A stretch of 64,000 bases of DNA from Diadema setosum (lineage: Eukaryota). Positions 9,344 through 46,184 of the stretch are shown here, piece after piece. The notes beneath the pieces are model-generated. The model saw only the letters and a program-made list of their open reading frames with translations, did no database searches and was not told the origin of the DNA. The translations under genes were made by a program, and so were the position numbers. Numbering within the stretch: position 1 is the first letter of the stretch; the number at the start of each line of letters is the position of its first letter. The DNA lies in the NCBI RefSeq assembly GCF_964275005.1, contig NC_092698.1, positions 38,664,639 through 38,728,638 of the forward strand, read 5' to 3'.

Positions 9344-9385
<42 letters not shown>

Positions 9386-25744: not shown

Positions 25745-26090
25745 TACTCTATTTCGAGGTGCTGAATCCTAATGTGGATGATGCAACTCTTGCATCCTTG
25801 AAGGTTCTGCGATACACAAGGTGCCCATCAAAATGATTGTCAAAATGGCCGGCAAAATCTGAAATCCTTTATTTTGCATTTCCCTGTAAATGATGGAAAA
25901 ACCGGGGGAAAAAAATCTTGATTTAACTGTGCTCCCAGGATGCTAAATCCGAATCTGGGTGATTAATTCTTACATCCTTAAGGATTTTGAGATATTGATA
26001 ATAAACATGGCCGCCAAAATCTGAAATTTCCTGTTTATTTTCTCGTAAGTGGAGAAAAGTTATGCTCTGAAGTAATTTGGGAGATTGAGT
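25745..26090. repeat. Intronic tandem duplication (2 x about 170 bp)
   Basis: Unit ...gaggtgctgaatcctaatgtggatga...ggccggcaaaatctgaaatcc... repeated at 25745-25915 and 25925-26090. Confidence 0.6.
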
Positions 26091-26635
26091 CAAGGACAGA
26101 AGGGAGAAAAAAATCACATATATTTTAGTTTAGCGAATTTGTCAAATCAGCCAAAATGGTGTCCAAAATGGCTGCGACAGTGTTAATCTATACTAAGCTA
26201 AAATATTCCATTGATGCATGTCTAATTGAATGTTTTCACGCGTTTTGAAAAGGTTGATATTAGTATCTTCTCTGGAAGAGATCAAAGATATTGCTGATAA
26301 TTCTATCATAAAAAAAAAGAAAAGAAAAAGAAAAAGATAGTATTAAAACTGGCCAATATGTAAAGAAAACTCTGTTAGCTTAAATACAAACCACAGGTCG
26401 ACAACGATTTATGTTTACCGACGTTTATTTCGCTATGAATACTTGTCCTACTGTGGAAGGATGAATTTTAGCACAACACATGAGTTCAGTTGACACGCGG
26501 ATTTTATTGCTGTATCCGACAGCTGTTTCGTGAATCTATTATTGTCCTTGATGGTTCTTAAATTAACGGGAAGATAATAAGCCAGTTTGAGGTTCCACTT
26601 TGCGTATGAGCAGAACAGGGTCATTTGTACCAATA

Positions 26636-27062
26636 GGTGGGTCTTCATCTGCTCGAGCTTGAAGAATAGCCGGCTATTTCTGATCCAAAGAAATAGCCCG
26701 ATCAGAAAATAGCCCGCTAATTTTGCAATGAAGACCGAAATAGCCGGCTCTTCCTATCGGAAAGTAAGCCAAAGAAATCTTGGATTTATGTGCAAAATAG
26801 CCAGCTAAGTTGCAGAATAGCCGGCTAATCTTAACGCGGCTTCATCAGTTCGAGCTTAAACATCGGCACTGCATGCGTTGCGCACCACGCAGGAATGTAG
26901 GCAGTCGGGTGGGAGGGTGTTAGCGTTGAGCTTATAAACCTGACTGTGCCTGGAGCTCGAGCTGGTGAAGACGCGATTGTACATTTCAGCTGACTTCGGG
27001 CTTATTTCTCTGATCCCCCATTAGCGAGCTATTCTTCAAGCTCAAGCTGATGAAGACCCACC
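26636..27062. mobile_element. TA-flanked MITE (about 427 bp) with about 35-bp TIRs and an internal array of about 7 aatagccGGCt units
   Basis: TIR ggtgggtcttcatc.gct.gagcttgaagaatagc at both ends; TA at 26634-26635 and 27063-27064. Confidence 0.7.
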
Positions 27063-27102
27063 TAATGGGACTAAGATAAGCAGCTGTGGTGTAATGATAT
27101 GA

Positions 27103-27495
27103 AAGGGATGGTACAGTATTGGTGGAGATGAAAATTGGGCTTTTAAATTCTTGCGAGATACCAGGAAAACAACTTATGATATAGTACAGAGCATACCATT
27201 TTAAGGGAAATTCAAAGTTTATTTGATGGAAATCGGATTTGGAATGAGTGAAACATCCAAAAACAAAGTAAAACAAAGCGATCGTAATATAGTGTGGGTC
27301 CCACACTTTATTAGAATTGCTCTATTTTGGATATCTCAGCAATTTCAAAACCAATTTTCATCAAATAAACGTTGAACTCCTCATAGAATTACATGCTCTT
27401 TCATATTTCATAAAAGGTTTCTCATTATCTCACAAAAAAAAAAAAAAAAATGTTGGAAACCTGAAATTAGGTCTCAACCAAAACTATACGATCCC
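27103..27495. mobile_element. MITE family X, copy b (PARP4 intron), 4-bp duplication ATGA
   Basis: Homologous to 5261-5643 and 35246-35626; TIR aagggatggtacagtattggtgg / ccaaaactatacgatccc; ATGA at 27099-27102 and 27496-27499. Confidence 0.65.
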
Positions 27496-27747
27496 ATGAA
27501 CATGATGCCTGCCAGCACATCCACCCGACAACAAAAATTGTATTTGACAATATCAAAAGAAAAACAAAACGTTAATACATTCAATGCAGAATAATGAAAT
27601 GGATGCCTTCCCAAGTGTAAATTGATGGGCCATTCTCGTCACCTGGTTCACACAACTTAGCTCTTTGTTTGAACACGACTGATGGATTCCATAAATTGTT
27701 ACGTCTGGCAAGCTTATGCATTTTGTCACTTTGAAGCAAGTGCCTAA

Positions 27748-28384
27748 AGCCCCGGTCATATAGCGCTTTACGGCTTAATCACGGCCAAAACCCGTCTAAA
27801 AGTGGTCTCCCGTGAAGCAGACGATGTTGTTCGCGTTGATGTCGAATTTAAGACTAGCTATGGACGATTTATAGAGTGGCAGGACGCGGGGAAAAATCGG
27901 AATGGCGTCGGACGCGGTAAAAAGTTTTGAACTACTCAAAATTTTATTCCGCGGACAACCACAGGCGGAACACGTGGTAAAGACGTGCAACACACGTGAA
28001 ACACACGTGAAACACACGTGATAATCCGTGTTCCGGCAGTGATTAAGACTTGGGGAGACGCGGTAAGACGCGAAAGTTTAGCGGTCTGTCACGGGCAAAG
28101 CACGGTCATCTGACGCGTGTTACGCGTTGGTATCACCGTAAATAGCGTGTGTTTAGCGGCTTATCACTGACAAATTGATTTTCCGCGTACATACACGCGG
28201 CTGGACGTGGTTAGCCGTGCTTAGGCAGTGCTTCAGCAGTGGAACAGCCGCCGACTGCCATACCCCGTACAAAAGCACGGCCAAACCAAAATTGACCAAA
28301 AATTACCACTGACGACCACGTCCACCAGATTTTCATAACTTTTTGTACGTGATTTAGACATGGAGTGCTGTGTGACCGGGGTAT
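27748..28384. mobile_element. Putative non-autonomous DNA element, unusually CpG-rich, with imperfect TIRs (ccccggtcatatagc / gctgtgtgaccgggg) and an internal (AACACACGTG)x3-4 array
   Basis: Terminal inverted repeat of about 15 bp with 2 mismatches; CG dinucleotide density far above the surroundings; E-box CACGTG repeated 4 times at 27964-28020. Confidence 0.4.
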
Positions 28385-31315
28385 AACCAACTGAGAAAAA
28401 TGAAAGGTCATTTGTACTCAAGTGCACATGAACTAACCCCGAACTGGCTTATTGAAAGTTTTAAATGCAATATAAGATGCACTGTTCTGAGGAGAATTAG
28501 ATTTTGGATCCACAATTTCAGTATTATGAGTTTAATATGCGGTAATTCAGACGACAGAGTTGTTGGGGCAAGGTCATGCAAGAGTTGAATGGAAAGATTG
28601 TGGTTTGTTTTCCTCTTCTTTCCTTGAGCCGATCAATATGTGAAGAAAAATAAAGACTTTCTCCATCGTAACAACCTAATACCATTGCTAAACAATCTGT
28701 TCTTACTGACTTGGGGTCGATTTAGTTGACCAGTTTAGGTGACCAGTCCTCCAGATTACGCCAAAGTAGCGCAAATGGGGCTGAATTAGGGTTTTGTATA
28801 ACAATAGGGAGGTATCCTTATCAATGAACTTTCTTATACGCTTGACTGCATGAAAGAATTTGAGCGTTTTGCTCCTAACATGTTCATTTTGTGGAGTCCA
28901 TGTTAGGTGTTCATCGAGAATGACCCCAAGATATTTACCCTCTGAAACTCTTTGCAGGGTGTATTTTCAATAACAAAATGAACATTTTTAAAATAACGCA
29001 AATTCATTTTAGATCCAATCAACATAAACTGACATTTGTTTACGTTTAACAATGATTAATCGCTTTTGAACCATTTAAAAAAAGTGACATTAGGTCATCA
29101 TTGTTTTGTCGACGAGGGGGGGGGGGGAGGGGTAAAAAAGCGGGTCTTTTGAAACAAAATATAAGCAGGTAGGCCTATCATCTACGCATAAGGAGAGCCA
29201 ACACTTCTTAAGAGATTTATGCATATAGTTAAGAGTGAGGATCAATAAAAGAGGCCAAATATTGATTATAATAATGATAGCTGGTCAAATCCGATTTCTT
29301 AATTTCTCAACAGCATTAAAGGATAAGGGCCATAAAGTAGTCTACTTTGTGTTCACTTCGAGCCCATTTTACAGAGCAAACACACAAACTTTTTGATTCG
29401 CCCCCCCCCCCCCAAAAAAAAAAAAAAAAATCTGAGAAAATCACAATACCTATTAATTTCAATTTGCATAGATTCTGCCTTTGATTTTTTTCCCTTCTAT
29501 AAGCGTAGTGGTGGCGACGGCGGCGGTGGCAATGGTGGTGGTGGGGGCGATGTTCCATTGACCTTGACCCCCCCCCCCCGACACACACAAACTGAAAAGC
29601 GTTCAACTTTATCATGACTCCACTTGTGTCTACATAGACATATCCATGGTCTTATACATAGTTTATAAAAACACTTGAGTGAATGAAAATTAATTACATT
29701 ATCTGTATTTCTTTTCTGTATTTCTGTAACATTTATCCAATTACACATACTGTCGTACATGTTTTGAATGATTGTAAGCGCTTTGGGCCTTGTGGGAAAA
29801 GCGCACTATAAATAATAGTAATAATAATAATTATAATAATAATATTTCTTTTTATTCGTAATGCGATTTTTAGGATGTGTCACAGAGTTCATGGCAGACC
29901 TCTGCTGGCAACCGGAACAATCTTTGACCATGCTCAAGGGCTATCATACCTTTCTGGGTAATTAATTTTAGAGAAGGGTAATTAGAGCATTGCTTTGTGT
30001 TGTATAGTTAATAGGTGGGGCGTGACACTTGCGTCCATGCCTGCCCTGCCGCAAATACGGAGCATTAAGAACGGACAGGAAGCCTCGAAGTATTACGCAC
30101 TTTGTATAGAAATCGTCTAGTTAAATCCATTGTCCACTCCAGTCTTTTTGAACTTTAATCCCCGATTGCACACATATTGGAAGAATACTTGGTGTCAAAG
30201 TTCCTTTTAAGTGACGATTAAGGTCTACCAATAGGTGTATTGAAACTGCTATCACAATTCACAACCTGTTGTGTATATAATCACTGGACCTCTGAGAATG
30301 TGGTATCGAGGGGGTTAATTCTTCATTTTATTGATACACTGTAATTGGCACTTGATCTGGACAATAAAGGGTTATGTCTCCGGGTTTGTTTGCTTGTTTT
30401 TTTTCACCCAACATAATGTGGTTGCATTGTTTTGGACGCTGTCCTCTCTAGATTCTAGAGAAAGCGACTGGCCTGAAAAGACTAGGCTTCTCGGGAACCA
30501 TTCATGCAGATCACCCAAAGTCAATAAAAGAGATGCAACCCCCGGATGGTCGGGCGGAATTCTCCCTGGTGGTCGTCATGAGTGGACGTGCAGTTCAAGT
30601 CCCTCCGACCGTCAGGACCTCCGACACATCCATCACACCTCTTCAACACAACCATGCACCACCACGAAAATCGGCGAAAATACTTAATTATGACAAAGTA
30701 CAAGGATACCGGAGCACGGAATATTAACCCCTTTCATACATTCACTGTACATTACTATCCAACTCAACAATAAAACACATTGTACAGGCTTCTCCATCAG
30801 CTATGCACCTTGGTAACAGTACAACAACATAATTAGAAGAACACCGCGTCATGATAATGATTTGGGTGCCGAAGCCAGGTTTTGAGACTGACAGATTTGT
30901 ATTCAACACTCTCGAAATGTAAAAACAAAATGGGCGGATAGTAAAACACGGTTCACCCTCTTACACTCAGACTAATAGGAATACAGTAGAAGAGCCTTAC
31001 ATTTTTGCATATTGAAATACAACGAACCATATGTATATAAATACACTTACACAAAGGAAGGGTAAAGAGAAGATGTAAATATATAATTATGAGGATTCTT
31101 TGCGGCCATAGTCGACTTCTTTGGAAGGTGATGACTGTATAATTCAATATAGTGTGTGAGTGACAGAACGTGCTGGTAGCTTGAACTGCAGAGCAAGGCG
31201 AACAAGAGGAGCCGGACCTGCCCATTTAGATCCTAAATATCCTATGTTAATGGTGTATAGCTCTTTTAAGTAGGTATCTTATAACGTTCTCTTAAACATT
31301 AATTTTTGTCATCAG

Positions 31316-31499
31316 TACCAGTGCCATATACTCTACTGCGGGAGAGTTTACTGGTACGCGTTTTATGGCTGTCAGTAACGTGGCGCTTGGAAGAGTTAAA
31401 GATGTTTACGAGAAGAGACTAGACCTTGAGAGCGCCCCCGTTGGTTTTGACAGTGTACATGGCGTCCGGAAATCCAAGGAGATCGAGTCGTTTTTTAAG
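31316..31499 (+). CDS. PARP4: PARP4-like exon (STSAIYSTAGEFTGTRFMAVSNVALGRVKDVYEKRLDLESAPVGFDSVHGVRKSKEIESFFK)
   Basis: catcag acceptor right after an in-frame stop, AAG|GTAAGA donor; aligns residue-by-residue with vertebrate PARP4 SIKYSHPGETDGTRLLLICDVALGKCMDLHEKDFSLTEAPPGYDSVHGV; phase-consistent with the previous exon across a 5.9-kb intron. Confidence 0.7.
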
Positions 31500-31596
31500 G
31501 TAAGACCAACATTTATCAGGTAGGGAAGTTACGTAATTATAAAGTTTCACATGTCCCTCGGATAAAACATGAAATAGAGGTCTCAAGTGTGAGAGC

Positions 31597-31740
31597 GTTA
31601 AAAAGATCATTCATGCATTTATCGGTCATTGGTCCGCCCCAAGTACATACAACTCGACCGCATGGAAGACCGGATAGCGCAGCTGAATATGAACAATGCA
31701 GCCATCTTGGCAGATGGAAAATGAAACAACAAACAAGCAT

Positions 31741-31776
<36 letters not shown>
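31597..31776 (-). mobile_element. SINE-like interspersed repeat (copy 1) adjacent to a (TG)n microsatellite
   Basis: About 130 bp with about 85% identity to 59700-59830 in opposite orientation (gttttcattttccatctg.caagatggctg...cttccatg.ggtc...gtacttggggc.gacca). Confidence 0.6.
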
Positions 31777-32236
31777 AAATAATTCAAACACTTAATTATG
31801 AAAATTAGATGAGATTGCGATGATTTCATGGCCTCACAAGTCACCTTTGACCTAGTCACTCACTAAATCTTGGTTTGTTTGTTTGTTTTGTGAATCACAA
31901 AGAAACACTTGATACAGTTACATTTGATTTGTGTTGTATTACAATAGAATATCATTTGTGAATGGGGAGAGTTGTTGCTGAATTATCCAAACACATTATG
32001 ACGTTATAGAATTTGCATTATTCTGTAGTTAAACAGTTGAAATATTGAAAAAAAAATCTGTGGCTATGTTTTTTACAGCTCTGAATTTAATGAAAATACA
32101 TTCTGTTTACCTGACCTCTCTCAAAAAATATTACTCACGTTTTAAGCTACCTGAGTCGTACATATACATCTTTAAGTTAACGTGTGAAGCTACGAATATT
32201 TACGATTAATGCACATACTGGTATAATTCTCACCAG

Positions 32237-32420
32237 GAGGATGAGTTCACTGTGTATCAGGCCAACCAGCACTGCCTTCGGTTCCTCGTTGAATTCAAAT
32301 TGACTGAGAGGAACGAGGATGGACACGATGGGAGTGTGAGCTCACCGAGCGCATTGATGTCCAGTGATGATGACAGTGATGACACTACTGACAGCGACAG
32401 TGACGATGATTTCGAGATCG
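32237..32420 (+). CDS. PARP4: PARP4-like exon (EDEFTVYQANQHCLRFLVEFKL... acidic Ser/Asp-rich stretch)
   Basis: caccag acceptor, G|GTATAA donor; matches the end of the PARP catalytic domain EDDEFVVYKTNQVKMKYIIKF. Confidence 0.7.
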
Positions 32421-32927
32421 GTATAATACAATTCGAATGATTTATCTCGGGGAAGTACGCACCTAAACCATAAGTCGTCAAAATGTGAAAATACTTGGAG
32501 TACAACCACAAGTTAATGAACGGCAAAGGCCAGATAACCGGTACCTAATACAGTGTAAAAGGAAAGGGAGCATTTACAACTTATGACATCCCATGCAATC
32601 ACGTTACTACATTGTTAGGATCTGACACAAAAATTGCGAGCAAAATCGTTTTGAAATCTAATGTTTAAGACTAATTGGAAATCAAGATTTGTAGGTCAAC
32701 GACAATTCTAAAGATAGAATAAATAGGTCACTGTCTGACTGTATTTACTTGTTCCTTGGCTTTTTCAAGAAAATAGTCGAAATGCTTGATGTTGTATGAC
32801 TTTTGTATGTGTCATGTTAACTCTGATGACCTGTGAACTATGAGGTGCTGACGTATCTCTTTCTTTGGCCCTGTTCCAACTGTCATGGTAAGACAGCATA
32901 TTGTATGGTATCTCGTCTTGTCTAAAG

Positions 32928-33058
32928 ATACAACGGACATACAGGGCATCTTGTATCCAGAGGCCAGAATTAAAGCCGGTCTCACCGGCGGGGACGGGGC
33001 GGGCATCGAACTCAAGGATGTCCACGTCCGAGCTAAGATAATAGATCTCGCTGCTGAG
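32928..33058 (+). CDS. PARP4: PARP4-like exon (DTTDIQGILYPEARIKAGLTGGDGAGIELKDVHVRAKIIDLAAE); VIT domain start
   Basis: ctaaag acceptor, GAG|GTAAGT donor; LEDVHIKGRIIDTVAQ equivalent. Confidence 0.65.
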
Positions 33059-33354
33059 GTAAGTTTACCAGTAGAACTAACATATTTTAATTGTTTTTCG
33101 TATCTTTAACAATTGTATACGTCTACATTGTGATTGTATGTACACTGTACTTAGTTATGTTGATAGCACATTGTTGCCTCCATCGACATTCTATAAATTT
33201 GAACGAAGTCAGCAGATTATTTAGGTTTACGGTTCCAATATTTATCATAAAATATTTTTAGGGTAATATGATTATGAAAATTTAATGGAATAACATAATG
33301 TGTTCATTGTCAAGATGTGTTGTCCATGCTTCCATTGTTAATTCCTCACCATAG

Positions 33355-33573
33355 GTAACGGTCCTCCAGAAGTACGAGAACATCGGGAAAGACTCGGCCG
33401 AGACGAGGTACGTCTTTCCGCTGGACGAATGCGCCGCTGTGTGTGGATTCGAAGCATACATCAATGGTAAACACGTCGTGGGCGTGGTCAAAGAGAAGGA
33501 AGAGGCAAAGACGTCGTACCAGAAGGCGTTACGGGAAGGCCATGGAGCTTATCTCATGGAGGAGGAGGCATCG
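33355..33573 (+). CDS. PARP4: PARP4-like exon, VIT domain core (RYVFPLDECAAVCGFEAYINGKHVVGVVKEKEEAKTSYQKALREGHGAYLMEEEAS)
   Basis: accatag acceptor, TCG|GTAAGA donor; near-identical to the vertebrate VIT block KYIFPLDDKAAVCGFEAFINGKHIVGEIKEKEEA...GHGAYLM. Confidence 0.85.
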
Positions 33574-33973
33574 GTAAGATCCATTATCTCATGCCAGTAC
33601 ATCATGTATGGTAAACATGCTGATCGGAATTGAAAACCGGCGAGCCCATGTCTCTCGTCCAATTCACTAGTGTTTTCCATTTTCCCAATTGGGTTTGGCT
33701 GGATCATGCATACTCCGCGGATTTTTTTTTTTTTTTTTTTTTTTTTGGGGGGGGGGGGAGGGGGAGGGGGGGGGGAGGACTGAAAACCCAGCCTCAGAAA
33801 GGCTTACAAACCATGTGCACATTTCCGTGGTCACTCCTTGATCAGGCGAGATCGACAGTAACTGTTATAGTTGAACCTCCTTTTTAATCAGATGTATTAT
33901 GCATCCTAAGCATATCGAAATTTCGATAATCGATGTACGCAGGATTATGTTTCCTCTTCTTGCTAAATGACAG

Positions 33974-34185
33974 AACATTTTCTCCATCACCGTTGGGAAC
34001 CTTCCGCCAGGGTCGAGCGTGATCGTTCGAATCACATATGTTACCGAGCTCGTGGTTGAAGGGGATCGGATCGCTTTCAATCTCCTTGGCAGCGTGGCGC
34101 CGTGGAAGAGGAATGAGATTTTGGCGGCAAAGTATGACGAAAAAGGTCAATCGGTGACTGCCGTGTGCCAAAACGACCGTGACAG
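33974..34185 (+). CDS. PARP4: PARP4-like exon, VIT domain continued (NIFSITVGNLPPGSSVIVRITYVTELVVEG...APWKRNEIL...)
   Basis: tgacag acceptor, AG|GTATGT donor; VxVGNLPPxxxVxIxITYxTEL block conserved. Confidence 0.8.
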
Positions 34186-34450
34186 GTATGTGACGTATGT
34201 GACTCGTGATTTACAATGCTGGTTTACGGTGTTTCCCTACACAACACTGGTCATTATCTTATTAACCGACGACTTTGTTTTTTCTTTCGAAAGTTGAGTT
34301 AATCTTGTATTTGTTTCTTAACAGCCACAAACTTTTGCATTTCGTGATTTAATCTTTGGTGGTAATAGTAACATAGTGACCGAACGTCTCTTTGGTAAGC
34401 AAAAGAAAAAATAATGACTAAACATAAAGGTGTGATTTGCCTTTATACAG

Positions 34451-34532
34451 GAACGAGTCATTCGTGGCTTCGATTGAAATGCCAGGGAAGATCAGACGAG
34501 TAGACTGCCCGACGCACACCGTCAAATTTCAG
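34451..34532 (+). CDS. PARP4: PARP4-like exon (NESFVASIEMPGKIRRVDCPTHTVKFQ)
   Basis: tatacag acceptor, CAG|GTAATC donor; SxxxSIEMP block conserved. Confidence 0.7.
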
Positions 34533-35039
34533 GTAATCACAGCTGGCACTTGGATTTACACTCAATATATTTACAAAGCAATAGTAACTCCATACTTCTC
34601 GTACGACACATTTCACTGTCATGTCTTTCGGTTGGATATAGACTTCTGTGTTGTAATGTTTTCTGACGAATATTTTCTATTGCAACTCCTTCACTCTCTT
34701 TCACTCCATTCTCAACCTCCGCATGAAAGGTGTCCTTAGGTAATATAAAAACTTTATGTCAAAAAGATTATGTGCACTAATATAATTTACAGATTGTTCT
34801 TACGTAGTCCTTAGGGGTATGATGCCTTGTAGGTTGTAACAAGAAATCGTGATATTAAATGATAAAAATAATCAGACTTCAGCGATCGAATAAAAATCAA
34901 TTAATAAAAATAACAGTAACGTCGGCGATTTCCCCTACGAAAGCTCTATATTCTCTCTGGCTTTGGATTTTCCTCCATCAAATGTCCATTTTTGTCGAGC
35001 CCACCGGAGGTGTGGGGAGACTAGGGATCGCCTGCGGCG

Positions 35040-35088
35040 TCTGTCCGTCCGTCGCCCGTCCGTCCGTCCGTCGTCCGTCCGTAACGCT
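35040..35088. repeat. (CCGT)n microsatellite
   Basis: seen directly. Confidence 0.85.
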
Positions 35089-35099
35089 ACAAAAACTTG

Positions 35100-35930
35100 A
35101 ATAACTCTCTACTGAGGACTTCAATTTCAATCAAACTTGGAGGGAAGAGTGGTTATACAAAGTTACACCTTTTACCAAACATGAAGGTCACCTCAAGGTC
35201 AAAGCTCACAGGCAGAGGTCAATGAACTTTAGGACCCAATGTTAAAGGGATCGTACAGTTTTGGGTGAGACCTAATTTCAGGTTTCTAACATTTTTAGGT
35301 GAGATAATGAGAAATCTCATATGAAATATGAAAGAGCATGCAATTTTATGAGGAATTCAACGTTTATTTGAAAAAAATTGGCTTTGAAATGGCTGAGATA
35401 TCCAAAAAGAACGATTCTAATAAAGTGTGGGACCCACACTTTGTAACGATCGCTTTGTTTTACTTTGTTTTTGGAAGTTTCAGTTATTCCAAACCCGATT
35501 TTCATCAAATAAACTTTGAATTCCTCTTAAAATGGTATGCTCTGTGCTATATCATAAGTGTTTTCTTGGTATCTTGCAAAAATTCGAAAGCCTATTTCTC
35601 ATCTCAACCAAAACTGTACTATCCCTTTAAGTTTTTACGGCGCGTTTTGATTATGACTCATAACTTTTGATGTATATGTCCGTTTTTACCAAACTTGTAT
35701 GTTAGATGTCCCTTGGGGAGTTGAAGGTTACCACAAGGTCAAAGGTCACAGACAGGGGTCAACGAACTTTTAGGGGCCAATATTAAGTTTTTACGGCGCG
35801 TTTCGATTATGGCTCATAACTTTTGATCCCTTTGTCCGTTTGTGACCAAAATTGGATGGTAAATGTCCCATGGGAAGTTGAAGGTCACCACAAGGTCAAA
35901 GGTCATAGGCGGGTCAATGAACTTCCGGGA
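35100..35930. repeat. About 150-bp satellite-like tandem units (3 copies) flanking the MITE copy c
   Basis: Unit ...gtccgtttttaccaaac...ggtcaccacaaggtcaaaggtcacagacaggggtcaacgaactttt... at 35100-35245, 35640-35785 and 35785-35930. Confidence 0.6.
35246..35626. mobile_element. MITE family X, copy c (PARP4 intron), TTAA target-site duplication
   Basis: TIR AGGGATCGTACAG.../...CTGTACTATCCCT; TTAA at 35242-35245 and 35627-35630. Confidence 0.7.
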
Positions 35931-36006
35931 GTTAGAAAAACATTTGTTTCTTCTACGCCAATGGGTGAGACACAATTTGGCCCTTGCCTTGTTCCCGTTG
36001 TTACAG

Positions 36007-36144
36007 AGGAGGAGTGACAGACATGTTTCCGTTGCCATGAGCGACGGAGACCGGCTCATTGATGGTATCCAGCTCCTTATCGACATGGAGGATGCCCACA
36101 CACCACGGCTTTGGCGGGAAAGACACCCTGATGGCGGAAAAGAG
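36007..36144 (+). CDS. PARP4: PARP4-like exon (RRSDRHVSVAMSDGDRLIDGIQLLIDMEDAHTPRLWRERHPDGGKE)
   Basis: gttacag acceptor, GAG|GTAAGA donor; PRMWVEKHPEKESE equivalent. Confidence 0.65.
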
Positions 36145-36411
36145 GTAAGAAAATAGTCGATTCATGGGTTCTTCTCACTTAAGAATGACAGTATGGGGTT
36201 ATTCAACCGCATACCTCGCTAGTGTGTACGTTTTAGTGATTCCAGTTTGTAATGAATTTTATTGCAGTATATAATTATGTACATTTTGGTTTCCCTTTGG
36301 AGCTTCAGGTGGAGCCCGAATGTGGAGAGGCACGATTTTGAATTTCGTTTCGTACAAAATGGTCATGCCAGTTCATAACCGTAATAAATGTAGTTATTTT
36401 CATCCCAACAG

Positions 36412-36598
36412 GCTTACATGGTGGTGTTTTACCCAGAATTTCAAGTGAGTGCAATCAAGAGCCCGGAAGTTGTCATTATGTTGGATCGCTCTACGTCAAT
36501 GAAGGGAGAGCCTATGAAAGACGCAAAGAAACTCGTTCACATGATCCTGGAAAATCTACCGCCTGGAAGTCGATACAATCTCATCGTCTTCGGAAATG
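36412..36598 (+). CDS. PARP4: PARP4-like exon, VWA domain start (AYMVVFYPEFQ...VVIMLDRSTSMKGEPMKDAKKLVHMILENLPPGSRYNLIVFGN)
   Basis: caacag acceptor, G|GTATTT donor; VWA MIDAS motif DRSTSM (DxSxS) and an IIQFG-like strand. Confidence 0.8.
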
Positions 36599-36896
36599 GT
36601 ATTTGACATAGGGCATACCCTCTGATCATATACATCTACTGATCAAATTATTCATTGTACCTTTTATCACGTTGTTGATGTACAGCGACAATTCCACTCA
36701 ATACTAACAATAGTGCATTTAACGTACATGACGTCTTCCTGATTGACACTGTAGTGCAGTGTAATGCACTGTGATTTTAAGTGATTTCATTCTAAAGCAT
36801 TGTTTATCACAAACTAGATAAGGAAAAAATGTTGGAATGTGTGTACAGAGTGTATGTACTGGGCACTTATCCTGCTATACATCCTTTGCACCACAG

Positions 36897-37164
36897 ACTT
36901 CGAAGAGCTGTACCCCGCCAGCGTGGTTGCCAGTGACACAAATATCCGAAATACGGAAACGTACTTGAAGTCAGTCAGCTGGGAACGTGGGGCCACTGAG
37001 GTATGGCGCCCTCTACGGGCAATGGCTCTCTTGGCGTCGGATGATGCGCGTCTCATCCGGAATGGATTTCTCATCTCAGATGGTCACGTGAGTAACGAGC
37101 AGGATACCCTAATCGAAGTGGCCACCAACCGACACATCAACCGCCTCTTTACCTTCGGTGTCAG
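36897..37164 (+). CDS. PARP4: PARP4-like exon, VWA domain continued (DFEELYPASVV...GATEVWRPLRAMALLAS...LISDGHVSNEQDTLIEVATNRHINRLFTFGV)
   Basis: ccacag acceptor, AG|GTAAAG donor; the LVSDGH block of VWA domains. Confidence 0.75.
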
Positions 37165-37831
37165 GTAAAGGATATGGAATACGACTACTTATTTACGATG
37201 CATAGTGAACTAAACTGCCTTTACGTCTACCACAACGGAATTATTATAGTGAATCAAATTTTGCATCGCTACATCCATCACAAACAAAATGAAAGTTGCT
37301 TTTAGTCATGTAGCAAGAGAAATAAGTGCAGTATATGACTTGCCTTTTCGCAAAACGATGACTATGACTGATTAAAAAAAAAAAAGATCTCAACCAGTCC
37401 TGACAACAGACAGACTCTCATAATTTTAGAACATGGCGAAGGCTCTAGTCTCTGACATAAAGTGGATCTTTTCTTCATTAAGAACTTTACCGAAACATGC
37501 TTCTTGTATTTGTTAAGAATATAAGGTACAAGGCTGATTGATTTTTAGAGCATTTGAACCTTATTGAGCTTATCACAGTTTCTGGTATTTAATATTTTCT
37601 ACTCATTTCATCTCCTATTTCTCTAATTTTCATTATTATCATTATCATTATCATTATTATGATCTTTTTATATAGACCGAGACTTGTTTACCATGAGTGC
37701 ATAACATAAAGGGAGGGGTATCCATCCAGCCAACATTTTCTGGGTTGTGTCATATTTCTCACTTATATATCAGTTATTTTGATTATTTTCTGTTGTCGGT
37801 CACACTAATACAAATGTACTTCACTTTGCAG

Positions 37832-37931
37832 CTCTGATTCTAACCGCCATGTGCTGCGGACCCTTGCCGACACGGGTGGTGGAGCCTACGAGCAGTTTGA
37901 TCCGAGAAGCAAATCAACTTGGGAAGCAAAA
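37832..37931 (+). CDS. PARP4: PARP4-like exon (SDSNRHVLRTLADTGGGAYEQFDPRSKSTWEAK)
   Basis: tttgcag acceptor, AAA|GTAGGT donor; STANRHVLRILSQCGAGVFEYF equivalent. Confidence 0.75.
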
Positions 37932-38500
37932 GTAGGTGACCAACTCACTATTCTGTTATATGTTAGCATTAGTTTCGTAATTGCTGTTTGAATAACGCAA
38001 TGAAAGGGAACATATCATCAATGGAAACCAAACGTTGAGTTTTAACTTACTGATAGTATACAAGTTTTTGGAAACTATTATTTGCAATCATGAGACGAAT
38101 TCAATCTGTACGGAACGCTCCCTAGCAAACGATGTTTCATATTATTATCAAACAAAGACAATCCATGCAAACCATGTACATTGGAGGAACACAGAAGTCT
38201 ACCGTTTTTATCGCTATAGCAAACTATATGCAAATTTGACGTTTGTATGCATCTGTAAGCAGTATAAATAGGGTGGGCTTGATTGATCATGAAAACATGA
38301 CATAGACCTGTCGTAGTGTAGGCCGATATACATAAGGTACAACGTCACAAACAGTGACAAAGGGAGTGCCCTGAATACTAGTAACCGATAATATGTAAGA
38401 AAACTTTATTTTGCAGCGAATGTTTGTTTCACAGCATGTTTTCTGCCCACCCTCTGGTTAACATGAATGTACCGAAAAGTTCTTTGAATGATCTTCTCAG

Positions 38501-38689
38501 GTAAAGGCCCAGGTTCGGCGATCGTGTCAGCCAGCAGCGACATCCATTAGAGTTGACTGGAGGGCAGAAGGACCGGAGAATCACGTGACCCTGACGAGGA
38601 AGCAAATCATCCAAGCCCCTTCCCAGATCGCATCTCTTTTCACTGGCACCAGACTTGTTCTCTACGCTATGGGACCTGACATTGCTGAA
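38501..38689 (+). CDS. PARP4: PARP4-like exon (VKAQVRRSCQPAATSIRVDWRAEGPENHV...SLFTGTRLVLYAMGPDIAE)
   Basis: cttctcag acceptor, GAA|GTAATT donor; aligns with IEDQMTRLCSPSCHSVSVKWQQ...PSLFLNDRLLVYGF. Confidence 0.7.
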
Positions 38690-39132
38690 GTAATTAAAAT
38701 CCTCACAGATGCTTATCACTGTTTATGCCTGATTGAACTCGAACTTGAGATGGGTTGTTTGAATGTCAATTTTTTATGCGCGATCATAAGAACAGTGATG
38801 TTGTTAGTTCATTCTCAAATATCGACTTGGCAGAGGCATGGTGCACGGTAATTAATGGTTATGCCTACATAAGAAGAAGTTTATCTTTATGTCACGAACC
38901 ACTGAAGTTGGACGATGATTGTGAAAGCTAAAAGCCCAAATCTTGAAAGCATCTTGTTGTTAGTTCGGATTTCCTGTGGATTTCTTTCGCTGTAAATTGA
39001 AATATGTATATTTTTTTTTTATCTCCATGAATAATCCACGGTGAATGTGGTGAAGTTTATAATTCAGTTGCATTTCCACAGTAGGTAATATCTTCCATAG
39101 ATGTCAACGAGGATTCTTTTTCATCTCTTCAG

Positions 39133-39213
39133 GTTGTTCTTAGCGCCGACATTGAAGGTCGAGAAGTAACGTGTAAGGTGACGTCGGAGAACTGCGCCAC
39201 CAACGCCGGTCTG
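39133..39213 (+). CDS. PARP4: PARP4-like exon (VVLSADIEGREVTCKVTSENCATNAGL)
   Basis: ctcttcag acceptor, CTG|GTGAGT donor; phase 0/0. Confidence 0.55.
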
Positions 39214-40174
39214 GTGAGTATATTCTGCTATGTTTATAAGCTGATAAGCTCTGATGTCAGCATGACGCTGTTGTAGGTTTCGTCAAGCCAGTTTGACAAA
39301 AAAGGACCCACAAAGCACCATCACCACCGCGAAAAAAAAAAAACCACCCAACCTAACCGAAACGATCAAGACAAAGACTCAATGTAAAGATTTGGATAAA
39401 CATTCGGCCTTATGTCTTTCAACAAAGAGTTGGATTCTGTACACATTGACGAGAGACGATACACTATAATTATAGTAGTTGACTATCAATATTCGGCAAT
39501 GGTACAAAAATGGAAACTTTATGTGCTCTAGAACACCAGAATTTAAATGTTTTGGATAGTGTAATGTGCTATGTACATAATCAAAAAAAGAAAAAAAAAA
39601 CTAGGTTGAACAGTTTACACCTTTATCTAGGCGTTAGATATGTATGCTATCCCTATAATGTGACATGTTTAAACACATCTTAGTTTGGTTACTACACCTG
39701 CATTTCAGTCATTCGCGATAGGAAATACGTAGCTTTATAATGATCACAACTATCACAAACTTAGAAATGAGTGATATTAATTGGGATCTCTCTTGATTAG
39801 ATCCCGTAAATTTCTAAAGTAAGGAACCAGGGACCACAGTTTAAATGTCTTGCCATTTCCTTGTATACTTATTACTGTACAAGCATTGCTAGCATCTACG
39901 TTATGTTTTCGTCTTCTGTGAAGTTTTGAGTGTGAAATTACCTTTGGCAACATGCTCGAACATATTTTGAGATGGTATTTACCTTCCAGGGCAGTTGAAA
40001 ACCGACAACAATGACAACAACGACACAGAATAGTACATATACCCAGTTCAGACATGTAAATGCATGTTTTCTGTATAGCACTCCTGGACAATCGGCTTGC
40101 ATTGTTCTTTAGATCTGATAGAAATGATTTAAGTATTGCATCGCTTTCTCCGCTGTATCGTTTATATCTGGAAG

Positions 40175-40357
40175 ACGCTTCATCGCCTAGCAACGAGGGG
40201 AGTGGTCAGGGACTGGGAGATTGGATCTGTGCACGCGGATAGGTTGGAAAATGACGCCATGATGGATGACGTCCGGCGATTGCTGGTCCAACTGGGGATC
40301 GAGTTCAACATCATTTCTCCTCTGACGAGTTTTGTGGCAATCGAGGAGCGATCTGAG
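40175..40357 (+). CDS. PARP4: PARP4-like exon (TLHRLATRGVVRDWEIGSVHADRLENDAMMDDVRRLLVQLGIEFNIISPLTSFVAIEERSE)
   Basis: In-frame acceptor ctggaag, GAG|GTAGAG donor; HKLAARALIRDYEDG...SLITQFTSFVAVEKRDE equivalent. The exon start is the least certain part. Confidence 0.6.
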
Positions 40358-40966
40358 GTAGAGCACTAGTAGGGACCTACAGATGAAGATCTTTATCACT
40401 CTCTCTTGTTTGCGCCAACCTGATTGATACCGTACTCACGTCGAGGACATTTCGTTTATTGTTATAATTCCCTATCATCTGAAATCATACTTCTACAATA
40501 CAGTACGTTAATAATGAACATACCATATTGTATTTTCCTAATACAATGTACCTTATTTATGGATATACATAACACACCATGATTGGCCATGAAATTGTCA
40601 ATCATAATAATGTTCATTTTCAAAGTAATAAAGACATGATATTACGTATACAATAATCATAGATTGGCATTAGGCACAGTATCTTTTCAATTGGCTGAAA
40701 TGTCGCCAAGTAACTTCGGAATCCGAAGCGCATTATGCTGCATGAGGATATCCAATAGCCTATATGAAAAGACAAGACACAAGTTATATTTCTCGTGGTT
40801 TATAGTTTTGTAATCTAGGACCACCATTTATCATATTATGATGGTATCATCAGGCTCAAAAGACCAAATTTAAAAAAAATGTGAAAACTCCGACAAAAAA
40901 GTAGATAAAATGCAATGAAAAAAAAAAACAATCACAGTAACTGGTAGTGCATATCTATACTCGCAG

Positions 40967-41086
40967 GACGAAACAAAGAAAGACGATCCATCGATGTCAA
41001 GTCTACTGGCCGAGATGAGTCCTGGGGGCCGTGACACGCAGCATGGAACATGGCACAGCCAGCCTGCCTCCACGGGCACAGAATCG
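40967..41086 (+). CDS. PARP4: PARP4-like exon (DETKKDDPSMSSLLAEMSPGGRDTQHGTWHSQPASTGTES)
   Basis: ctcgcag acceptor, TCG|GTATGG donor; phase 0/0; low-complexity linker region. Confidence 0.45.
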
Positions 41087-41618
41087 GTATGGTTGCCATA
41101 GCAACTATGGCTCATCTTCCTCAGGGATGAAGTCTGCATCTAATAATGAGCAGTTCTCTGGAGAGAAAGGGGTGCCCTTCCGGCTTAAAAGCTGACACAG
41201 GCATCGACTAGAAACATGAAATAAATTTGGGCTGAAGCAGGTCGAGGTTGTCAAGGGATGATCATTTTCAGGAGGAAATTTAATGTTTTGTTTATTTATT
41301 TATATATTTTGGGATTTTCAGTGAGAATCTTGCAGAATAAAGTATGCATATTGCGCGATAGATTTGATAAACCTTTTATCCTTCATCATTACTAAATGAT
41401 ATTAACATTATCGTTGGAAATATCAAGGATGATAAATGTTGAATAGATTAAAAAAAAAAAAAGATCAGTCTCAGAGTACAATGGATTGTAGTGATAATAA
41501 GTAGAGATGGGCCGATCAAACTTATTAAAAAAAAATCGTAAAAACGTGTTCAATTTCCCCATTAACATTGTAAATGAAATTATATGAAATACGTTTTTCT
41601 TGTAACTTTGGTCCTCAG

Positions 41619-41768
41619 AGTGATGCTATCACTAGACTGGAGGATATTCTGTCTCGAGCCAAGGGAGCCCAGAATACTTTCTCCTTCGTGACCGCTGAGA
41701 ACCAATATCAACGTGCGATGGAGCTCGCCTCGGAGTCTCTGCCTCCAACGCACCCTTGTGTGCAAGAG
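41619..41768 (+). CDS. PARP4: PARP4-like exon (SDAITRLEDILSRAKGAQNTFSFVTAENQYQRAMELASESLPPTHPCVQE)
   Basis: gtcctcag acceptor, GAG|GTAACC donor; phase 0/0. Confidence 0.5.
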
Positions 41769-42473
41769 GTAACCCTTTAGATGAATTTTGCCGTCATTTT
41801 GCCATTCAATTTCCACGAGAAAGACAACGAACATAGAAAATTGAAGATAAGGTGAATATAATTTTGAAGCAACGGTGACAACAGAAGCCAAAAAATCTGC
41901 GTAAGGCTATCATCAATCATGACCCGCCAGCCTGTTGACACCATGGAGTGTGGAGGCTGGCCCGGCGGCTCGGATATATTCGAGAATTCCCGTAACGACT
42001 TGTGTTAAACTTCATCACTGATCTTTATGTAAAGTACACACACAGCCGAAGAATCTCGACTGCAGTCGACCATTGCCGATGAGCGTACGCTTCAATGTAC
42101 ATTCGCTGACGAGCGCTATTCCTGGTTTTCGAACGTACGAACCCCGATGGGTAGTCAATGACGATCGATTCAGAATTGTTCCATCCATTTCTTCCCAGGC
42201 AGCCGTGTCTTGAAAACTTTGCTAAACTCATCATCAATGACTTTATGAAGCATTCTTGAAAATAATTTGGATCAATGTAGCGTTAGGGATACTCGAATAC
42301 GTCCTGAATTAAAACAATTTCATTGATGGTACAACGGTATGAAAGACGGTATAAAGATCTCAGCCATTGACATCGTATATGAAAGCTACGATATTATTAT
42401 ATGAACTAAAAAATGCTAAAAATAATGATGCGATTTATCGTCATGAATGCATGGTTGTCTTATTATTATGCAG

Positions 42474-42643
42474 GCATTCCTGGCAGTGGCTAACTTCCAC
42501 CTTCACATCAAAGGCGAGGCGACCAAGGCGAGGGATGTTCTTGATGACATCCTCCAACGAGTCAAAACGTCAACATCTGCTGAGATTGATCGGAGGCTCA
42601 CTAACATGTCTAAGATGTTAGTATTTGAGTTTTGTGGGAAGGG
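42474..42643 (+). CDS. PARP4: PARP4-like exon (AFLAVANFHLHIKGEATKARDVLDDILQRVKTSTSAEIDRRLTNMSKMLVFEFCGK)
   Basis: tatgcag acceptor; donor GG|GTGAAG chosen because it gives the phase 2 required by the next exon. Confidence 0.45.
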
Positions 42644-43127
42644 GTGAAGACGCATGCGTAATATTCAGTTAAGCAATCTGCTGTAGCAGCTAAACTTCCT
42701 TGAGAAGCCTTTGCGTTATCTTTTTAAATGATTGTGTCGATAAAAGCAGATTGCGGTTGGAAACTCCATAGAGCATGTAGAATGTTTAGGCAAACTACCG
42801 GTCTGCCCGTTCGTAAGGTGATTTATATCTATATCAAGCATTCCTTTGTTCCTTATACTGTCTCGTAGCCTTTGTAAAATGTACCAACACCGCAAAGCGT
42901 TATGTCTCATACAGTTTGTTCGATTTCTTCGCATTGTGTATTTAGTAAAAAGGAGCAACGAAAGTACATCTAATTATTGGTGGCAGATTTTAGATGTGGT
43001 TGTAACATCAATTGATTTCGATACCCCATCCTAGGTCTTTTGAAAGTTTTGCTTTTGTTCACTCTTCTTCGCCATTGAACTGACATAATGTTTTATTTTT
43101 GTTATTTTTTGTTAATCCCTACCACAG

Positions 43128-44724
43128 ATGTCAATGTGTTATTGATGAAGGAATCCAAGGGAAAGAGCGGCAGCTCAAACCACCGGGTGAATCACAGAAA
43201 CACGATCGCATGGTTCGCATAGAATCTCGAGAAACACAGCAGCCCTGCGATCCTCCGATACCATCGGCTAAAGCCATGGACTCTACACAGCAGGCTCTAA
43301 AGACGGAGGAGCTGGTTTCCCCAACACTCCGAGATGTTGATATGGATCAACTTGCAGATCAGCTGGAATTGTTATCTCCCACGGAAGACACACAGAAATC
43401 ATTTCTTGCACATGCAGAAGAGGCGTGTGCGCTCAAGGAATCACCTGTCGACGTCATGGAGCTTTCGGAGGAGGTTTACTTTGCTGATGAGCCTGAACCT
43501 GCCTACATGGTAGAATCTGTTCAGGAAATTCAGCTAGTTGAAGATGTGATGTCTCCTGTCCTCTGTTTAGCTGAACCAGCTAATAGGTCGTTGGTCTTTT
43601 CATATGAAACCGAAGCTGCATACCTTGAGCCTGTGCAAGAACTTCAGATCTGTGAGGAAGTACAAGAAGTATTATCTCCTGTCCTGGAATCGAGCGTTGA
43701 ACCGTTACCTTTGATGTTAGCAGAAGTTGAGTCTGTCACAGAGCTGAGGAAAGAAGTGGCAGAACCTATGAAATTGGAACAACGCAGGGAGAAAAGGTTA
43801 GAGTTGGCAGAACCTGTGTTGATGAAGAAAAAAAAAGCGTTGGCAGAACCTGTGATGCTGGAGGAAAAATTGGCGTTCGCAGAACCTGTGATGCTGGAAG
43901 AACGAATGGAGACACGGGTAAAGATGGCAGAACCTGTATTAATGGCGAAAAAGTTGGAGTTGGCAGAACCTGTGATGCTGGAAAAGCATATAGAGGAAAA
44001 GTTGGAGTTGGCAGAACCTGTGATGATGGAGGATAAATTTGCGTTCGCAGAACCTGTGATGCTGGAAGAACGAATGGAGACACGGGTAAAGATGGCAGAA
44101 CCTGTAATGATGGCGAAAGAGTTAGACTTGGCAGAACCTGTGATGCTGGAAGAACGAATGGAGACACGAGTAAAAATGGCAGAACCTGTAATGATGATGA
44201 AGCAACATATTGAGGAAAGTTTAGAGTTGGCAGAACCTGTCATGATGGAGGAAAAGTTAGAGTTGGCAGAACCTGTGATGCTGAAGGAGCAATTGGCTTT
44301 CGCAGAACCTGTGATGCTGGAAAAGCATATAGAGGAAAAGTTAGAGTTGGCTGAACCTGTATTTATGGCGAAAAAGTTAGAATTGGCAGAACCTGTGATG
44401 CTGGAAGAACGAATGGAGACACGATTAACGATGGCAGAACCTGTAATGATGGTACAACACATGGATGAAAAAATGGCGTTGGCAGAACCTGTCATGATGG
44501 AGGAAGAGCTGGCGTTGGCAGAACCAGTGATGATGAAGGCACATAGAGAGGAAATATTAGAGTTGGCAGAAGCTCCCGAGTTGAATCAAGTACTTGACGC
44601 TACCTCAGCTTTGGAAGCCGATGACATCCTGCCAAAACAACAACAGCACGCTCCAGCAAAGGAAGATCTCGAAAAGACAGAGGCCTTCGACATAATTACA
44701 AGAATTTTGCAAGTAGGGCATCAG
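43128..44724 (+). CDS. PARP4: PARP4-like giant exon (532 codons): acidic region with two ~36-aa repeats followed by about 19 tandem (L/M/F)AEPVM(L/M) repeats of 11-15 aa
   Basis: ccaccacag acceptor (phase 2), CAG|GTAAGG donor; open frame throughout (ORF 43099-44838); nucleotide repeat unit gcagaacctgtgatgctggaag... with 33/36/45-bp periods. Confidence 0.7.
43750..44580 (+). repeat. Coding tandem-repeat array inside the PARP4-like giant exon
   Basis: About 19 occurrences of gcagaacctgt(g/a)atg(c/a)tg... spaced 33-45 bp apart. Confidence 0.85.
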
Positions 44725-45115
44725 GTAAGGAGCAAGATCAGTTTTAAAAAAATCGATTTCAAAATGCAGAGTATTTGCATCCATTTTAATTCAATAACAT
44801 TGGAACAAACAGAAGCAGAGCTAGAAATTCCTACATGAATTGTATCTTCCTAACTAGAATCAGTTCACGGAATAACCGTCATACTTACTCTCTGTACGAC
44901 CGAAACAATAACAATGTAACCATCTTATTCAGTATCATGGCTCACTCAGTGCAACTCTAGCTCCTGAGCTGTACCATCACGTCTGCTTCGAACAGCAAAT
45001 GCTTTCTAAATATTTCACGACTGCAGAGGTTTTTCATTTACTGCGTATAGATAGTGCACATAATCTTGAATGAAAATAGGAATCCAAACTTGATTATACT
45101 GTACCATTCATGCAG

Positions 45116-45299
45116 AAGAATGTGACTTTATGTACAACTTTCACCACGTCCTGTCACTTTTATCAGGACGAGCAGTCCCGCTGGTGTTGGGAGCTCGCTG
45201 ACATCGAAGGAGAATTCGGCATCGACTGCAGCAAAGTGACCGATGCACTTCAGCAGCCTGACCAATACCTGGACATGGATAACACGCTGCTTGAAACTT
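45116..45299 (+). CDS. PARP4: PARP4-like exon (KNVTLCTTFTTSCHFYQDEQSRWCWELADIEGEFGIDCSKVTDALQQPDQYLDMDNTLLET)
   Basis: tcatgcag acceptor (alternative in-frame acceptor at ttatcag, 45162), T|GTAAGT donor. Confidence 0.55.
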
Positions 45300-45921
45300 G
45301 TAAGTTTCTCTTCCCGCTTCTAAAATTTCTCCTGTTAACTTATCAAATTCAACTGGGTCCGAGTGTCCGAGTGAGGGAGAAAATTAATCATGGACAAGTC
45401 GTTACAAATCAGCGGGTAGGGAAACAGGATCATATGAAATATACAAACAATCACACACACACACACACACACAACACCGCAAATCATACATTTCATTGAA
45501 GACTGGTGGGCACTTTCAGCTTGAATATAGTGTTTGTGGTATAGACTCTAGACCCAGTTGCTAAAATAGACGTAAGATATTCAGACGTTGTTCAAATGCA
45601 TTTAATCAGGTCACATACGTGAGAATAAGGTCTTCCAAATGTTGAAAGCGACACCCTCCAATAAAGCTGATTCACATTAGACTGTGAAAGAATTTGTGCC
45701 TTTAGTCTCGCTACCGATCCACTTTACATTCCTTGGATGATTTGGCAGTCAACAGGTGACAAACAAAATGTACCATAACGTGCTTCCATCCTGTTTCATG
45801 GATAGAGCAAGAAAGTCTTTTTTCCCATAAGTATGACAAGCGACTTGGGTAACCTTAGCAGCAAAGGGTGACCAACTGTTAACTCCAAGTTTGGCTCTCT
45901 GTTGTCTTCGTCCTGATATAG

Positions 45922-46184
45922 GGATGTCAAGCCTCGGCCTCATCAAGAGGATTGTTGCAACTCTCCTTGTCACCGCCCTGCTCTCATGCCTGGAATCGAC
46001 ACTCCACTCAACCGACATCGACGTCGCCAACGTTCGGTTGTCGTGGGAGAAGACTTACCAACCACCGCCTGAGTTATGCAGCTTGGCTGTGAAGTGTGGT
46101 CTGGACGTGTCCTGGAAGGACGCCCTCACCGTATTTCAACTAGAGAACACCCTTGATGACATCATCAATAGAGTTTCAAGTTGA
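45922..46184 (+). CDS. PARP4: PARP4-like terminal exon (WMSSLGLIKRIVATLLVTALLSCLES...LENTLDDIINRVSS*), similar to the vertebrate PARP4 MVP-interaction region
   Basis: gatatag acceptor (phase 1), TGA at 46182-46184; SSLGLIKRIVATLLVTALL resembles RECLLDLIATMLVLQFI of vertebrate PARP4. Confidence 0.6.

Follow-up and report, generated by a model that had tools for sequence, protein, structure and literature searches.

What is the largest exon of the PARP4-like gene of the sea urchin Diadema setosum, and what accounts for the tandem repeats that make up half of it? The gene lies in a stretch of 64,000 nucleotides (NCBI RefSeq assembly GCF_964275005.1, contig NC_092698.1, positions 38,664,639 to 38,728,638 of the forward strand), hereafter the window, to which all coordinates refer. 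The exon in question, coding exon 25, encodes 532 amino acids (aa), including 19 head-to-tail units that open with the motif AEP(V/M). With a probability of roughly 0.7, we regard exon 25 as the urchin counterpart of the hypervariable linker exon of PARP4, lengthened by an in-frame minisatellite. The coordinates of the features discussed are collected in Table 1.

The host gene encodes a protein of 1909 aa (RefSeq XP_072174381.1, P0103), the record of which is titled "protein mono-ADP-ribosyltransferase PARP4-like". Exact mapping of this protein onto the window placed 1907 of its 1909 residues in 27 blocks, the remaining two being split codons. Pfam matches on the window put the exons for the PARP catalytic, VIT, and VWA domains upstream of the repeat exon and on the same strand. 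On the protein, Pfam recognizes in order: (i) PARP_reg (residues 183–263, E = 6.3e-06); (ii) the PARP catalytic domain (290–450, E = 8.3e-28); (iii) VIT (534–644, E = 1.9e-36); and (iv) VWA (791–944, with VWA_3 at E = 2.4e-17). These are followed by a helical segment (~1171–1231), the residues of the repeat exon, and 131 C-terminal residues. The best named relatives of the Diadema protein are annotated PARP4 sequences from corals, fishes, and one crinoid, and its conserved blocks stop at residue ~1245. A sequence-only reading of the window had called the gene PARP4-like, an identification that the domains and the identity to the RefSeq protein both bear out.

Exon 25 is the largest exon of the gene, at about 10 times the median exon size; the other 26 coding exons measure 78–270 bp (median 156 bp). 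Its acceptor (...ccctaccacAG/AT at 43126–27, the slash marking the splice point) is preceded by a pyrimidine tract, and its donor reads CAG/GTAAGG at 44725. These boundaries, which had also been proposed from the letters of the window, are exactly those of the RefSeq model. The preceding exon 24 (acceptor ...ttattatgcAG/GC, donor GAT/GTTAGT) leaves 2 bases, exon 25 supplies 1 base and 532 codons, and exon 26 begins in phase 0. We derived this splice chain from consensus and phase alone, before the RefSeq protein was seen, and its translation is identical to the RefSeq C-terminus. Of the three sense frames of the exon, the one that starts at 43129 is open throughout, and the others contain 24 and 53 stops. 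In an HMMER search of 1.84 billion representative proteins, residues 1247–1778 of XP_072174381.1 matched the repeat exon with 100% identity.

In vertebrates, PARP4 contains a disordered region of ~360 aa, which is "highly variable among vertebrates" in sequence and length and is encoded by the single largest exon of the gene, exon 30 in humans (Daugherty et al., 2014, PMC4038475). This disordered segment joins the ITIH-like region to an all-helical MVP-interacting domain, residues 1570–1724 (Suskiewicz et al., 2023, PMC10450202). The urchin exon resembles the vertebrate one in several ways. It comes after the VIT/VWA region and a helical extension and before a C-terminal domain of ~150 aa that is predicted to be helical; it is a single exon, by far the largest of its gene; and it combines a lack of conservation between lineages and a variable length with the absence of a confident predicted fold. 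Acidic low-complexity sequence also occupies the linker position in orthologue fragments from Tegillarca and from Liparis, the latter with a poly-D stretch. On the other hand, the urchin exon encodes 532 aa as opposed to ~360, and half of it is a regular Met/Glu-rich tandem array with a 12- or 16-aa unit, whereas the published accounts of the vertebrate linker (PMC4038475, PMC10450202) describe no tandem array. The sequence-only reading had placed the array between the VWA region and the C-terminus and had pointed to a low-complexity linker at the equivalent vertebrate position. Both statements hold, the array following the ITIH-like region with its VIT and VWA domains and preceding the C-terminal domain of ~150 aa, and the vertebrate segment being disordered and non-conserved (PMC4038475, PMC10450202). 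What that reading missed is that the vertebrate linker exon is the largest of its gene and was already recognized as hypervariable, both in its sequence and in its length, and the urchin feature is less surprising for that reason.

The 19 units of the array comprise nine of 12 aa (36 bp), nine of 16 aa (48 bp), and one of 17 aa (51 bp); all these lengths are divisible by 3, and no unit contains a stop. The count of about 19 in the sequence-only reading was thus right, but the unit lengths that it gave (11–15 aa, with DNA periods of 33, 36, and 45 bp) were not. The array consists of 23% Glu (62/269), 14% Met (37/269), 13% Leu, 11% Ala, 9% Lys, and 7% Pro, and has a net charge of -28. Tandem Repeats Finder detects the array at periods of 36, 48, 84, and 168 bp, scoring 531–645, and the highest score belongs to the period of 168 bp. 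The core motif GCWGAACCWGT is present in 18 copies in the window, every one of them inside the array, where shuffled sequences lead one to expect 0.10.

The units fall into subtypes, and the interior of the array has been homogenized recently. Four units of the subtype AEPVMLEERMETRVKM share 94–100% of their DNA sequence, and two of the subtype AEPVMLEKHIEEKLEL share 98%; there are three short subtypes besides. Above the level of the unit, two adjacent blocks of 168 bp (Table 1) are joined by a third at 44266–44433, which is 80–85% identical to them. The longest exact repeat, 66 bp (43873 versus 44041), falls within the adjacent blocks. Near-identical interior units, degenerate edges, and higher-order units are all signs of concerted evolution. 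The near-identical units and the register of 84/168 bp fit recent unequal exchange or replication slippage, as had been proposed from the likeness of some units. The origin of the unit in a nearby segment, LAEPANRSLVF (43567–43600), was also considered; the likeness, which is out of register, is too faint to support a claim.

Coding minisatellites, of which length polymorphism is a usual hallmark, are built from head-to-tail units in multiples of 3 bp and form higher-order blocks, with a homogenized center, degenerate edges, a biased composition, and a distribution restricted to one lineage. The urchin array shares this construction, composition, and restricted distribution, and nothing essential differs; the unit sequence (AEPVM...) and the host protein are particular to Diadema.

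The remainder of the exon is also unusual in composition. Exon 25 as a whole has a net charge of -66, with 122 acidic residues, 44 Met, and 39 Pro. The two acidic repeats with SPVL motifs that had been noticed ahead of the array are genuine: they align with each other at a score of 64, compared with 31.4 ± 5.6 (maximum 54) for shuffled sequences. Downstream of the array, the tetrapeptide VGHQ in the exon tail recurs, by eye, in the PARP4 tail of Liparis.

Searches for relatives of exon 25 returned nothing but the Diadema protein itself. Exhaustive HMMER comparison with the 1.84 billion representative proteins gave four further weak matches (P0104–P0107), all of them unrelated repeat proteins: a 20-aa LDVSENVLFRNRLDVVNDVS array, a MPIADPVNRGQA array (P0105), a RYMLADPKAMES array from the snail Physella (P0107), and a psyllid protein with EPVEIKEPLEI units (P0106), the E-value of which (2e-6) is driven by composition. 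We rejected all four as homologues. Pfam and NCBIfam gave only sub-threshold noise on the exon (DUF4606, PRK06163). Word-indexed protein searching found no match for the exon and turned up no further PARP4 from an echinoid; proteins above ~880 aa were absent from its lists (it returned only proteins <900 aa), and it missed the 1909-aa RefSeq protein itself, so that its negatives are uninformative for long proteins. When metagenomes were scanned for pairs of core motifs spaced one unit apart, more than 120 loci emerged. No similarity to exon 25 was found by blastn in the 120 loci that were fetched, and the tblastn matches among them are other AEPV/AQPV tandem arrays; we rejected these loci as chance or convergence. 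One of them (L006, 1652–2146, minus strand) carries a perfect 16-aa tandem array, AEPVIGHTPVEGKVPN, which has only the AEPV core and the period in common with the urchin array and is regarded as convergent. P0105, P0107, and L006 all resemble the urchin array in a period of 12 or 16 aa and in a small-acidic-Pro core that opens each unit; unlike it, they belong to different proteins, with other inter-core residues and no shared flanking domains, and their E-values are driven by repetition. We treat the likeness as convergent low complexity and not as homology. Judged by these searches, the array has no detectable homologue, which fits the lineage-restricted module that the sequence-only reading had envisaged. 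No published description of the array was found, though the protein sequence is already in RefSeq.

Across the 19 units, codons 1–3 show only synonymous variants (GCA/GCT, CCT/CCA), and codon 4 is GTG, GTA, or GTC, with a single ATG. The ratio of nonsynonymous to synonymous differences (pN/pS) is 0.25 for the AEPVM core and 0.45–0.63 for whole units, a pattern that is suggestive of coding constraint on the core, bearing in mind that the sites are few and that homogenization confounds the comparison.

According to structure predictions, the array has no confident fold. AlphaFold2 (AF2), run without an alignment on the array together with the C-terminus, gave a mean predicted local distance difference test score (pLDDT) of 33, with values <50 throughout the array; beta-strands that it drew in part of the array lie below this value and were disregarded. 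This fits disorder of the array, single-sequence AF2 being a weak test of it. The claim that the units are amphipathic did not survive: their mean hydrophobic moment (muH) is 0.16 at 100 degrees (z = -0.7 relative to shuffles), and beta-type moments are no better than those of shuffles.

Run on the C-terminus alone, AF2 without an alignment predicts the last ~150 residues to be all-helical (pLDDT 45). Only in position, size, predicted helical content, and a few short motifs does this region agree with the vertebrate MVP-interacting domain. The motifs shared with fish PARP4 C-termini (IVATLLV and AVK..LDVSW) are statistically not significant. The sequence of the C-terminus has no match in the Protein Data Bank (PDB), a word-indexed search with the C-terminal 184 aa returned 47 candidates and no match, comparison with fish PARP4 tails was not significant by BLASTP and reached a probability of 0.35% by hhalign, and Foldseek found no match in the PDB for the C-terminal model (pLDDT 45). 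An MVP-binding-like C-terminus, as the sequence-only reading had it, could therefore not be demonstrated.

From these data the following course of events may be proposed. The oversized exon would encode a non-conserved, acidic, probably disordered tether between the enzymatic and ITIH-like head of the protein and a small helical C-terminal domain of the kind that anchors PARP4 inside the vault in mammals. In the Diadema lineage, a unit of the form AEPVM[L/M]-x6-10 (12 or 16 residues) appears to have been amplified to 19 in-frame copies, probably through unequal crossing-over, gene conversion, or replication slippage, in registers of 36/48 bp and then of 84/168 bp. The amplification would have added 269 residues, about half of a linker of ~500 residues. 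As a long, highly charged (net -28) stretch punctuated by prolines, the array would then serve as a flexible spacer, letting the head reach farther from its anchor point. The protein seems to tolerate the unit and to constrain it weakly, as changes in the AEPV codons are almost all synonymous.

The PEVK-type repeats of titin offer a general parallel to such a spacer, as they are likewise Pro-punctuated, Glu-rich, and of low complexity, lie between folded domains, and are thought to be extensible. Unlike them, the urchin unit is rich in Met and Leu with only 7% Pro, and Pfam and NCBIfam reveal no homology; moreover, PARP4, unlike titin, is not part of a force-bearing filament. The psyllid protein P0106 is a similar case of a spacer repeat rich in Pro, Glu, Val, and Lys, again with no homology to the urchin array.

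Several points weigh against the interpretation of exon 25 as a lengthened linker exon. Its equivalence to human exon 30 is positional only, since a region of this kind retains no sequence similarity. No homology could be demonstrated between the C-terminus and the MVP-interacting domain of vertebrates, so that anchoring to the vault is assumed. A methionine content of 14% is odd in a passive spacer, and the spacer model does not account for it. The disorder is predicted solely by single-sequence AF2, which is weak evidence, and the residues between the prolines (Glu, Leu, Met, Ala, and Lys) are good helix formers, so that short helices in series, and not a random coil, may make up the array. 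Comparisons of pN/pS among units draw on few sites and are confounded by concerted evolution. Finally, inclusion of the exon in mRNA is taken from a computational RefSeq (XP_) model and from in-silico arguments on phase and constraint.

Instead of a spacer, the array could be a multivalent recognition or binding module, either a pathogen-recognition interface as proposed for mammalian exon 30 or a dock for MVP or cargo, in which changes of repeat number would bring diversification. In primates and bats, recurrent positive selection acts on the linker exon, which has been proposed to bind pathogen factors (PMC4038475). A motif AEPV that is kept in the protein while its codons drift synonymously is what one would expect of a short linear motif in each unit, the 19 copies are near-regular, and the many Met residues would suit flexible hydrophobic contacts. 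Against this, no partner is known, the units are without an amphipathic signature, nothing in Pfam or NCBIfam suggests a known motif family, and synonymous-only variation in four codons can also be explained by recent homogenization. We consider such a module unlikely, with a small but real chance of being correct.

PARP-family enzymes modify acidic residues, and the vault PARP has been reported to modify both itself and MVP. The Glu-rich array could accordingly serve as an ADP-ribosylation acceptor for the adjacent catalytic domain, in the manner of the automodification region of PARP1. By inspection and comparison with PARP1 motifs, the H-Y-E catalytic residues are apparently kept in the Diadema protein (His335, Tyr377, and Glu447), the array is nearly one-quarter Glu, and it is probably flexible. 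VPARP has indeed been described as a PARP (PMC2169495). This idea is drawn purely from composition; outside the repeats the exon is more acidic still, so that the array is not singled out, and the conservation of Met, Pro, and Val would be left unexplained. A role as acceptor is improbable.

Another explanation is that the array is an artefact of annotation, in which case it would be an intronic or untranslated minisatellite that happens to lack stops, with the mRNA spliced around or within it. Tandem units without stops are open by construction, and an open frame across the array is little proof of coding, given that the antisense strand, too, lacks stops there over 313 codons. That antisense stretch has no Pfam match; confined as it is to the array, it was rejected as a gene and is best seen as a by-product of the repeats. 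In addition, the RefSeq record is a computational model, and an exact-protein look-up with XP_072174381.1 found no contig with a gene call for it on record. However, the sense frame, unlike the antisense one, continues without a stop for 210 codons ahead of the array and for 53 codons beyond it; we estimate from base composition, not by a dedicated tool, that 210 stop-free codons would arise by chance with a probability of ~2.5e-6. Both splice sites conform to the consensus, in phases compatible with the exon on either side. Since 1597 bp is not a multiple of 3, a transcript that skipped the exon would have its last 131 residues out of frame. Every unit is a whole number of codons long, the changes in the core codons are synonymous, the purine-rich array makes for poor internal acceptor sites, and vertebrate PARP4 has a large exon at the equivalent place (PMC4038475). 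An artefact is very improbable on these grounds, and exon 25 is presumably translated as annotated.

Least plausible of all, to the point of being negligible, is that the exon captured an insertion of satellite or transposon origin: retroelement sequence does occur elsewhere in the window (RVT_1 at 736–2148), but the core motif is found nowhere else in the 64 kb, blastn of the exon detected no similarity to the 120 fetched metagenome loci, no frame of the exon contains a transposon protein domain, and the array edges grade into degenerate units in a continuous frame, without sharp insertion boundaries. Both the artefact and the insertion are made unlikely by the fit of the splice phases, by the frame that remains open on either side of the array, by the pattern of codon variation, and by the confinement of the motif to the array.

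Table 1. Features of the PARP4-like gene and its repeat exon (positions in the window).
Feature	Position	Strand	Description
PARP4-like coding region, complete	20342..46184	+	27 coding exons; exact protein-to-window mapping
Coding exon 23	41619..41768	+	50 codons, phase 0/0; helical, TPR/14-3-3-like end of the conserved region
Coding exon 24	42474..42616	+	ends with 2 bases of the split codon AT/A = Ile1246
Coding exon 25 (repeat exon)	43128..44724	+	1597 bp = 1 base + 532 codons; residues 1247–1778
Acidic repeat A (…SEEVYFADEPEPAYMVESVQEIQLVEDVMSPVL)	43465..43563	+	local self-alignment
Acidic repeat B (NRSLVFSYETEAAYLEPVQELQICEEVQEVLSPVL)	43582..43686	+	local self-alignment
Antisense stop-free stretch (…ITGSANSNFSS…)	43647..44585	-	313 codons, confined to the array
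Degenerate 5' edge unit VEPLPLMLAEVESVTELRKEV (VEPLPLML...)	43696..43758	+	translation; unit likeness by eye
Core array	43759..44565	+	19 head-to-tail AEP(V/M)(M/L)(L/M)… units, 269 aa
Two adjacent 168-bp (56-aa) higher-order blocks	43843..44178	+	short-long-short-long, 86% identical
Degenerate 3' edge unit AEAPELNQVLDATSAL (AEAPELNQ...)	44566..44613	+	translation
Non-repeat exon tail (…KEDLEKTEAFDIITRILQVGHQ)	44614..44724	+	start of the predicted all-helical C-terminal domain (AF2, low confidence)
Coding exon 26	45167..45299	+	phase 0 start; 44 codons + 1 base
Coding exon 27	45922..46184	+	TGA stop at 46182–46184; exons 26 + 27 = last 131 residues

Some further features of the gene model deserve mention. 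Vertebrate PARP4 begins with a BRCT domain. Pfam finds no BRCT match in the 1909-aa RefSeq model at E ≤ 1, and BRCT-containing vertebrate fragments gave no tblastn match upstream of 23.0 kb; the absence (residues 1–190, window positions 20342–23132 of the plus strand) could reflect loss in the lineage or a 5' exon that is missing from the model. Toward the end of the conserved region, residues 1171–1231 give a weak 14-3-3 match in Pfam, and exon 23 is, by eye, similar to the tails of coral and other orthologues. Exon 22 (40967–41086, plus strand) reads DPSMSSLLAEMSPGGRDTQHGTW where orthologues from corals to fish carry a motif …DL(L/V)K.E.VD.L.Y.GW; this motif follows the SFVAIEER block in the orthologues and is strongly diverged in Diadema. 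By far the longest intron of the gene (25422–31313, plus strand, 5.9 kb) lies inside the region coding for the PARP catalytic domain and contains a minus-strand open reading frame (ORF; 28706–28966) that looks by eye like a retroelement remnant and has no Pfam match. The intron after coding exon 26 holds a (CA)13 microsatellite (45452–45477).

Elsewhere, the window has a G+C content of ~0.38 and short exon-like open stretches, as befits eukaryotic DNA. At its left edge, an open frame of 471 codons (736–2148, plus strand; RVT_1, E = 4.6e-39), with an adjoining ORF at 3–749, represents a fragment of a non-LTR retrotransposon. A multi-exon carboxylesterase/cholinesterase-like gene occupies ~5800–12100 of the minus strand, with COesterase matches in Pfam for the exons at 6474–7007, 8644–9030, 9961–10341, and 11021–11248 (E = 1e-12 to 7e-17). 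Further CA, TA, and poly-purine simple repeats appear in the ORF translations, e.g., near 7100, 16200–16400, 31600, 50900, and 58000.

The array is in itself a fairly ordinary, lineage-specific case of repeat expansion in a disordered region, and it bears on how the linker of PARP4 evolves. In mammals, the linker exon is the only part of PARP4 under recurrent positive selection. The sea urchin keeps the gene architecture, with one oversized exon encoding a non-conserved linker before the C-terminal domain, while the content of that exon has been wholly replaced by a home-grown repeat, which suggests conservation of the presence and length of the linker but not of its sequence. At its most far-reaching, this would mean that a hypervariable linker in a single large exon is an ancient, deuterostome-wide feature, and that the Diadema array is no inert spacer but a rapidly evolving surface, polymorphic in length, with which the vault would recognize, for example, pathogens or cargo, and which changes through the number and order of its AEPVM units; we hold this extended proposal to be a speculative one, with the odds well against it. 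Sea urchins have classically supplied biochemists with vaults in abundance; their vaults carry bands of ~200 kDa consistent with VPARP, and S. purpuratus has a VPARP homologue (PMC550661). In Diadema, repeat number would provide a simple, countable read-out for asking whether selection acts on the length of the linker.

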